In this document: positions 48,911 through 49,241 of the stretch, one piece after another | Numbering within the stretch: the stretch's first letter is position 1 | Layout: every line of letters begins with the position of its first letter | Source of the DNA: Escherichia coli | GTDB lineage: Bacteria > Pseudomonadota > Gammaproteobacteria > Enterobacterales > Enterobacteriaceae | Strand: one strand, 5' to 3' | Length of the DNA stretch: 64,000 bases | Assembly: GCF_017348835.2 (NCBI RefSeq) | Contig: NZ_CP071375.1 | Position numbers and translations under genes: made by a program | The notes under the pieces: model-generated | Seen by the model: the letters and a program-made list of their open reading frames with translations, nothing else | What the model was told of the DNA's origin: nothing | The model's database searches: none

Positions 48911-49241
48911 CTATTGATTATCAACAGGAAGAAAAGAAACCAAACGTAACCCATCCAAATCCACCGGAATACGTCTGTTTTCTCCCCAGGTCTGAAATTC
49001 AAAACCCGACTCGGTATTGGTCGCCCAGGCCATCACCACATTTCCGCAACCAGCCAGTTGGGTAATTTGCTGCCAGATCATCTCCCGAATACGTTTTGAT
49101 GTATCACCAACATACACACCGGCACGCACTTCCAGTAACCGTCGTACTACGCCGCAGACTGGCACGTTCGCCGCGTTTCTCCTGCAATTCCTCATGCCAT
49201 TTGCGCAGCGTGGCTTTGTGCTCCTCTTTTACAATACTCAT
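48911..49241 (-). pseudogene. deletion remnant: cse2 5' end (about 33 codons) joined out of frame to the cas2 3' part
   Basis: An ATG at 49239-49241 overlaps the cse1 stop (ATGA) and opens a Cse2-like N-terminus ([31 protein letters not shown]...) that stops after about 45 codons. In another frame the sequence from about 49140 down to 48911 encodes a Cas2 C-terminal part ([12 protein letters not shown]...[12 protein letters not shown]). No cas7, cas5, cas6e or cas1 lies between them. Confidence 0.7.

Follow-up and report, generated by a model that had tools for sequence, protein, structure and literature searches.

The 64,000 nt stretch of DNA analyzed here (the window) is part of an E. coli chromosome and is 100% identical to strain PE164 (NZ_CP114128.1) over positions 42840-55400; no difference to PE164 was found over window 48521-64000, and three positions differ over window 1-43521. 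Read on the minus strand, the region under study contains hok, a cas3 gene split by an insertion sequence (IS), cse1, a junction between cse2 and cas2, a leader and the CRISPR1 array, beyond which lie iap (plus strand) and then cysDNC (minus strand). In intact relatives the same chromosomal site, between cysH/hok and iap, is occupied by the complete order cas3-cse1-cse2-cas7-cas5-cas6e-cas1-cas2-leader-CRISPR1. PE164 has been described as an O108:H9 hybrid aEPEC/ExPEC isolate from a piglet, in a report which makes no mention of CRISPR (PE164 genome paper). The carriers PE164 and F2_81 were isolated from pigs in China and Australia, respectively. An insertion of about 1.09 kb with respect to O157:H7 lies between cysH and hok (window ~55252-56340) and encodes, in an open reading frame at 55309-56739 on the plus strand, an IS481-family transposase (NF033577, 212 bits, slightly below the cut-off of 224), which is a pseudogene in the PE164 annotation and an intact 358-aa protein in F2_81, with two indels between them. 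According to the PE164 annotation table, a HigB-family toxin and an HTH antitoxin are paired between hycI and ascB (window ~14949-15676).

The cse1 (casA) gene appears intact. It occupies 49238-50800 on the minus strand, encodes 520 aa from an ATG at 50800 (the list of open reading frames extends it to a TTG at 50860), matches the TIGR02547 casA_cse1 profile over its full length (554 bits, profile positions 1-504 of 504) and carries the PGAP label casA in PE164; the closest intact cse1 is that of EC1515, with 98.5% identity. It should be noted that the sequence from the cse1 start to the junction (49137-50800) is a mosaic, being 99-100% EC1515-like from 50800 to about 49650, where identity to O157:H7 is only 64-93%, and matching O157:H7 at 100% between 49604 and the junction. 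This pattern therefore places a recombination boundary in the 3' portion of cse1, which agrees with an exchange of cas modules that has reportedly been described in E. coli.

Upstream of cse1, a 1310 bp IS3-family element (53485-54794, plus strand) has inserted into codon 36 of cas3. The element matches the IS3 transposase family NF033516 and is flanked by a 3-bp target duplication (CAC); its ends, reading TGAACCGCCCCGG…, are IS629/IS1203-like. Identical copies of this IS are found on E. coli plasmids, one of them from F2_81. The larger part of cas3, from codon 36 to the stop (50890-53484, minus strand), is severed from its start by the element and still matches both the HD domain (TIGR01596) and the helicase core (TIGR01587) profiles. 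Codons 1-36 lie beyond the IS at 54795-54902 (minus strand), as judged by alignment to the F2_81 cas3, the start of which maps to 54902; this fragment is called a partial 'hypothetical protein' by PGAP. The 886-aa 'Cas3' annotated by PGAP in PE164 starts at an ATT inside the IS and is an annotation artefact.

Downstream of cse1 the operon is shortened. The breakpoint was placed by fixed-register three-way alignments against the alleles of O157:H7 TX 376-2, EC1515 and PI12, and on the minus strand cse2 nucleotides 1-106 (49241-49136) were found to be joined directly to cas2 from nucleotide 68 onward (49137-48911). Identity to cse2 extends through position 49136 (…ACGACGGTTA) and identity to cas2 begins at 49137 (TACTGGAAG…), the exact junction reading …ACGACGGTTA followed immediately by CTGGAAG…. 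At the junction itself (49136-49137, minus strand) the two parental sequences share only the dinucleotide TA, and the octamers around it, GGTTAATG in cse2 and GGCTACTG in cas2, are an imperfect match with six of eight positions identical. In the three-way alignments every base at the joint belonged to either cse2 or cas2, and no filler bases, IS end, IS remnant or target duplication were found. The preliminary description of this DNA, made from the letters alone, had located the breakpoint within 49135-49145 and had proposed a deletion of about 4 kb; alignment to the intact genes has now fixed it to the base, at 49136/49137 with the 2-bp TA microhomology, and has given a missing length of 3872 bp with respect to TX 376-2 and 3875 bp with respect to EC1515. 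The discrepancy of 3 bp is consistent with the annotated length of the spacer between cse2 and cas7, 11 nt for TX 376-2 as opposed to 14 nt for EC1515. An intact allele of exactly the same haplotype was not found, the nearest cse1 being the one with 98.5% identity, and for this reason the deleted length of 3872-3875 bp and the 2-bp microhomology are values taken from near relatives. What has been lost comprises cse2 codons 36-178, the whole of cas7, cas5, cas6e and cas1, and cas2 codons 1-22, while both flanks are collinear with the intact operons. Since 3872 is not a multiple of three, what is left of cas2 is read in the +2 frame with respect to the cse2 stub.

The cse2 stub (casB codons 1-35; 49137-49241, minus strand, with the match continuing for one more base to 49136) is identical to the TX 376-2 gene in 106/106 nucleotides and to the CasB protein of O157:H7 in 35/35 residues (BLASTP 1e-22), confirming both the Cse2-like N-terminus read from the sequence in the preliminary description and the cse2 origin of the segment 49141-49241. 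As had likewise been noticed there, the cse1 stop codon and the ATG at 49241-49239 overlap as ATGA; this ATG opens a 45-codon frame (49104-49241, minus strand) which encodes Cse2 residues 1-35 followed by 10 frameshifted residues. This 45-aa product has no match in NCBIfam and falls far short of the Cse2/CasB helical bundle of about 178 aa, and the stub is flagged in the PGAP/RefSeq annotation as an incomplete pseudogene, 'missing C-terminus'. The native Shine-Dalgarno sequence GCAGGAGG is preserved before the cse2 ATG, with a predicted strength (-10.3 kcal/mol) equal to that of the intact operon. Since both this Shine-Dalgarno sequence and the ATGA coupling to cse1 have been retained, the 45-aa stub peptide is the best-supported product of the junction region, and ribosomes leaving cse1 are predicted most likely to translate it by way of this coupling and the strong Shine-Dalgarno sequence.

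The cas2 remnant (48911-49137, minus strand) consists of codons 23-97 and the stop codon, and is identical to O157:H7 cas2 in 227/227 nucleotides and 75/75 amino acids (BLASTP 2e-56); the Cas2 C-terminal region which had been read in a different frame from about 49140 downward thus begins at 49137. The possibility that cas2 is full length here from a different start does not hold, as residues 1-22 are absent from the DNA. The remnant matches the Cas2e profile TIGR01873 well above the cut-off of 33.15 (88.5 bits) at profile positions 20-87 of 87 only, and aligns to residues 22-95 of the solved E. coli Cas2 (4P6I); on this evidence it would be classed as a fragment of a TIGR01873 family member and not as a full-length Cas2e. 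In the ferredoxin fold of Cas2 the missing residues 1-22 correspond to strand beta-1, in which an acidic residue binds metal, and to the beginning of helix alpha-1. Two starts could in principle give rise to a chimeric product. The ATG at 49195-49193, from which the preliminary description had derived a 94-aa chimera with 19 non-Cas2 residues, does open such a frame (48911-49195, minus strand; 75 Cas2 residues), and it is fortuitous as had been supposed: it owes its existence to a synonymous His polymorphism (CAT/CAC) of cse2, the position being ACG in the alleles of EC1515 and PI12, and a check for a ribosome-binding site found no Shine-Dalgarno sequence (-1.5 kcal/mol against a background median of -2.5). 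The PGAP alternative is an 84-aa frame starting at a GTG at 49165, which has an AGGAG 13 nt upstream (-7.4 kcal/mol) and is labelled in RefSeq as a normal cas2e (WP_227915860.1). No sigma-70-like promoter was detected when 48500-51000 was scanned, and expression would therefore depend on the cse1 transcript. Given the AGGAG upstream, some translation of the 84-aa Cas2 fragment from GTG 49165 is possible, though we predict little or no expression of a Cas2 fragment. Having neither a proper start nor residues 1-22, what remains of cas2 is most likely a pseudogene fragment devoid of function.

The AT-rich CRISPR1 leader (48815-48910, minus strand) has been kept between the cas2 stop and the first repeat, collinear with the intact references. 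It is followed by the CRISPR1 array (48541-48814, minus strand), composed of four canonical 29-nt type I-E repeats (48786-48814, 48725-48753, 48663-48691 and 48602-48630) and a degenerate terminal repeat (48541-48569). These delimit three unique spacers and the ancestral terminal spacer, of 32, 33, 32 and 32 nt, so that a leader and a 29-nt I-E repeat array with spacers of about 32 nt are all present. Spacer 3 (48631-48662, minus strand; CGTATTGCAGTGACTATCCCTAAAAACCTGCA) matches perfectly the P2-family major capsid gene of prophages in seven complete E. coli genomes, with an AAG PAM preceding the protospacer, and is also found in the arrays of TUM13936 and OZ197100. The array is not annotated as CRISPR by PGAP in either PE164 or F2_81; instead a 57-aa 'hypothetical protein' (WP_404853007.1; window 48650-48823, minus strand) was called wholly inside it, and this coding sequence is almost certainly spurious. 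Outside the window, PE164 carries a CRISPR2 array with five spacers (NZ_CP114128.1, 1005220-1005554), the second of which (GACGCGGTTGCTGATTTGGAGGATGAAGAGTG) is a 100% match to about 100 E. coli plasmids of ~90 kb and a ~91% match to ead/Ea22-like prophage genes; neither PE164 nor F2_81 carries a target of this spacer. CRISPR1 spacer 3 and CRISPR2 spacer 2 are real acquisitions against mobile genetic elements. A different array was observed in the carrier Logan SRR21833425 (4815-5048), which shares the leader-proximal spacer 1, has a different spacer (GCGTTCGGTGTCGTGACAAAACAGGACGCCGA) next to it and is one unit shorter; because Cas1 is absent this fits the loss of spacers from a longer ancestral array and not acquisition.

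The distribution of the junction was addressed in complete genomes and in public contigs. Among 5426 complete E. coli genomes it is present in two only, PE164 and F2_81. Exact-sequence look-up identified the 45-aa peptide on at least 24 public contigs (31 index blocks), the 94-aa frame on 14 contigs and its 84-aa version on 20. An identical 81-nt junction sequence was found in PE164, in F2_81 and in all of the further contigs inspected (10/10, from NCBI, Logan and ENA), and the carriers that allow an in-register comparison are separated from F2_81 by 0-4 SNPs across ~10.4 kb. An identical junction together with 0-4 SNPs over ~10 kb speaks for one event in one recent clone, and these comparisons indicate that the deletion probably arose once, in the ancestor of a small clone which includes F2_81 and PE164. 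F2_81 carries the deletion together with an intact cas3 (899 aa) and has no IS at the cas3 site; the insertion of the IS into cas3 is therefore later than the deletion. Contig L012 of another carrier breaks near the IS site (cas3 product of 889 aa, the gene running from base 2) and departs from F2_81 at the cas3 site in the same way as PE164, so this break may reflect the same insertion. On contigs L006 (GCA_900195445.1, 1-6004) and L013 (1-663) an IS has instead truncated cse1, of which the last 109 codons are left. The order of events as read from these sequences is the deletion first, followed by independent IS hits in cas3 (the PE164 branch) or in cse1 (another branch). The element on L006 and L013 was recognized by its open reading frames of 108 and 295 aa, which are the sizes of those of the IS3-family element in cas3 of the window. 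Beyond the IS, L006 continues into a lambda-type integrase/excisionase, a pectinesterase gene and an aconitase gene, a flank which suggests an IS-mediated inversion or rearrangement.

The nearest intact counterparts of the locus are the I-E operons of E. coli phylogroup E and related strains, represented by O157:H7 TX 376-2 and EC1515. They occupy the same chromosomal site as the locus in the window and agree with it in leader, 29-nt repeat and the order of genes at either end, and the O157:H7 alleles match the cse2 stub and the cas2 remnant with 100% identity; compared to them the window lacks 3872-3875 bp, from cse2 codon 36 to cas2 codon 22, and has its cas3 split by an IS. Partial clusters of this type are well known, with 17 partial against 23 complete I-E clusters counted in Escherichia and Salmonella (Touchon and Rocha, 2010; PMC2886076) and incomplete operons of three, five or six genes found in a survey of uropathogenic E. 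coli from 2025 (PMC12736100). The published partial I-E clusters of Escherichia, Shigella and Salmonella likewise show internal deletions, pseudogenes and IS insertions with a leader and a short array kept (PMC2886076; PMC12736100); however, the incomplete operons of the latter survey always retained cas1, cas2 and cas3, whereas in our case cas1 is gone and cas2 is truncated. We found no published description of this cse2/cas2 junction in the literature. The closest parallel is strain PI12 (pig, Cuba; NZ_CP074005.1), in which the same operon has suffered an independent internal deletion of ~3.2 kb, also with a short microhomology (an overlap of at most 8 nt between the two BLAST pieces at the junction, locus 6700-6870), which removed cas7, cas5, cas6e and most of cas1. 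In PI12, however, cas7 at about nucleotide 38 is joined to the 3' end of cas1, cse2 and cas2 are intact and the array is different. Such an independent deletion with other breakpoints shows that events of this type recur in the operon.

With collinear flanks, no inserted bases and few bases shared between the parental sequences, the junction has the features of a microhomology-mediated, or illegitimate, deletion, and the 2-bp microhomology and seamless joint would fit illegitimate recombination. We conclude that it is very probably the scar of one such deletion of ~3.87 kb within the type I-E operon of E. coli. That the junction is an artefact of assembly, by collapse or mis-joining, has practically no chance of being correct, as nothing in its favor was found and two complete genomes, which come from different laboratories on different continents, have the same junction, as do 10/10 contigs. 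The idea of several events, either nested deletions one after another or an adjacent deletion mediated by an IS that was lost later, draws on the fact that the locus is IS-prone, with an IS3-family element in cas3, an IS in cse1 of L006 and L013 and an IS481-family unit near hok; nevertheless all junction bases derive from cse2 or cas2, without filler, a target duplication or the end of an IS, the junction is one and the same in all carriers, and no intermediate was encountered in the 5426 complete genomes, which makes it very improbable. The single deletion put forward in the preliminary description is supported by the collinear flanks, the clean joint and the one junction in all carriers, and would be the simplest reading, it being understood that two nested deletions would look alike. 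A functional role for the chimeric frame, of 94 or 84 aa, as a truncated Cas2, perhaps acting with the retained Cse1 and Cas3, may seem to be favored by the normal cas2e annotation of WP_227915860.1, by the 100% conservation of the remnant, by the AGGAG upstream of GTG 49165 and by the retention of the C-terminal part that can be aligned to the solved Cas2. Residues 1-22 and the obligate partner Cas1 are nonetheless missing, the conservation says no more than that the event is recent (0-4 SNPs per 10 kb), the ATG is not preceded by a Shine-Dalgarno sequence and the 13-nt spacing of the GTG is long, and the continued decay of the locus, with cas3 broken by an IS in the window and cse1 broken in other members of the clone, speaks against a kept function; we regard this role as most improbable.

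A selective origin of the deletion, which would have disarmed self-directed interference or spared a beneficial prophage or plasmid, deserves consideration because the arrays do hold genuine spacers against mobile elements (CRISPR1 spacer 3 and CRISPR2 spacer 2) and because self-targeting is known to lead to the loss of cas genes in other bacteria. The three CRISPR1 spacers and the five PE164 CRISPR2 spacers were compared by BLAST with the 5426 complete E. coli genomes, a test which reaches targets within ~3 mismatches and is blind to more divergent ones and to elements lost since the deletion. Within these bounds no self-target of the eight spacers was found in PE164 or F2_81, where they match only their own arrays, and a plasmid of ~90 kb with the spacer 2 protospacer was not found in either strain, the two neighboring plasmid accessions being 41.7 kb and 9.7 kb in size. 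Escape from autoimmunity thus finds no support, since none of the spacers has a target in the carrier genomes. The E. coli I-E system is, moreover, normally silenced by H-NS, so that little selective pressure would be expected, and on balance this explanation appears quite improbable. Two apparent hits in the same searches were rejected: a second spacer match in PE164 and F2_81 vanished when spacer 5 was left out, being the array's own fifth spacer, and a genome with spacer matches on two records proved to be a different strain, GF4. There is only a slim chance that the deletion was fixed in the swine-associated O108:H9 clone to permit the elements targeted by its spacers (a P2-like phage and the ~90-kb plasmids), or else that Cse1, the Cse2 stub and the Cas2 fragment keep a residual role outside immunity.

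Among the Cascade genes, cse1 matches its profile over the full length, only codons 1-35 are left of cse2, and cas7, cas5 and cas6e are absent; on the adaptation side cas1 is absent and cas2 lacks codons 1-22; and cas3, interrupted by the IS at codon 36 in the window, is intact in F2_81. From what is known of type I-E biology, the absence of the Cse2/Cas7/Cas5 backbone, of Cas6e and of Cas1 would abolish crRNA processing, interference and spacer acquisition, and because these functions are lost the short array would be frozen. The change looks like neutral decay of a normally H-NS-silenced system rather than a selected one, neutrality being suggested by the negative self-targeting test. It is ordinary gene decay, a kind of event that is already known, and its scar has already been partly annotated through the cse2 pseudogene; the biological import is small, as it is well documented that the I-E system of E. 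coli, silenced by H-NS, undergoes partial decay. The lineage is of use as an illustration of stepwise decay, with a deletion followed by independent IS hits in cas3 or cse1, and the junction offers a clean marker of one clone, the pig-associated lineage found in Australia and China. The RefSeq label 'cas2e' on the Cas2 fragment means that surveys based on the presence of cas2 over-count functional adaptation modules.
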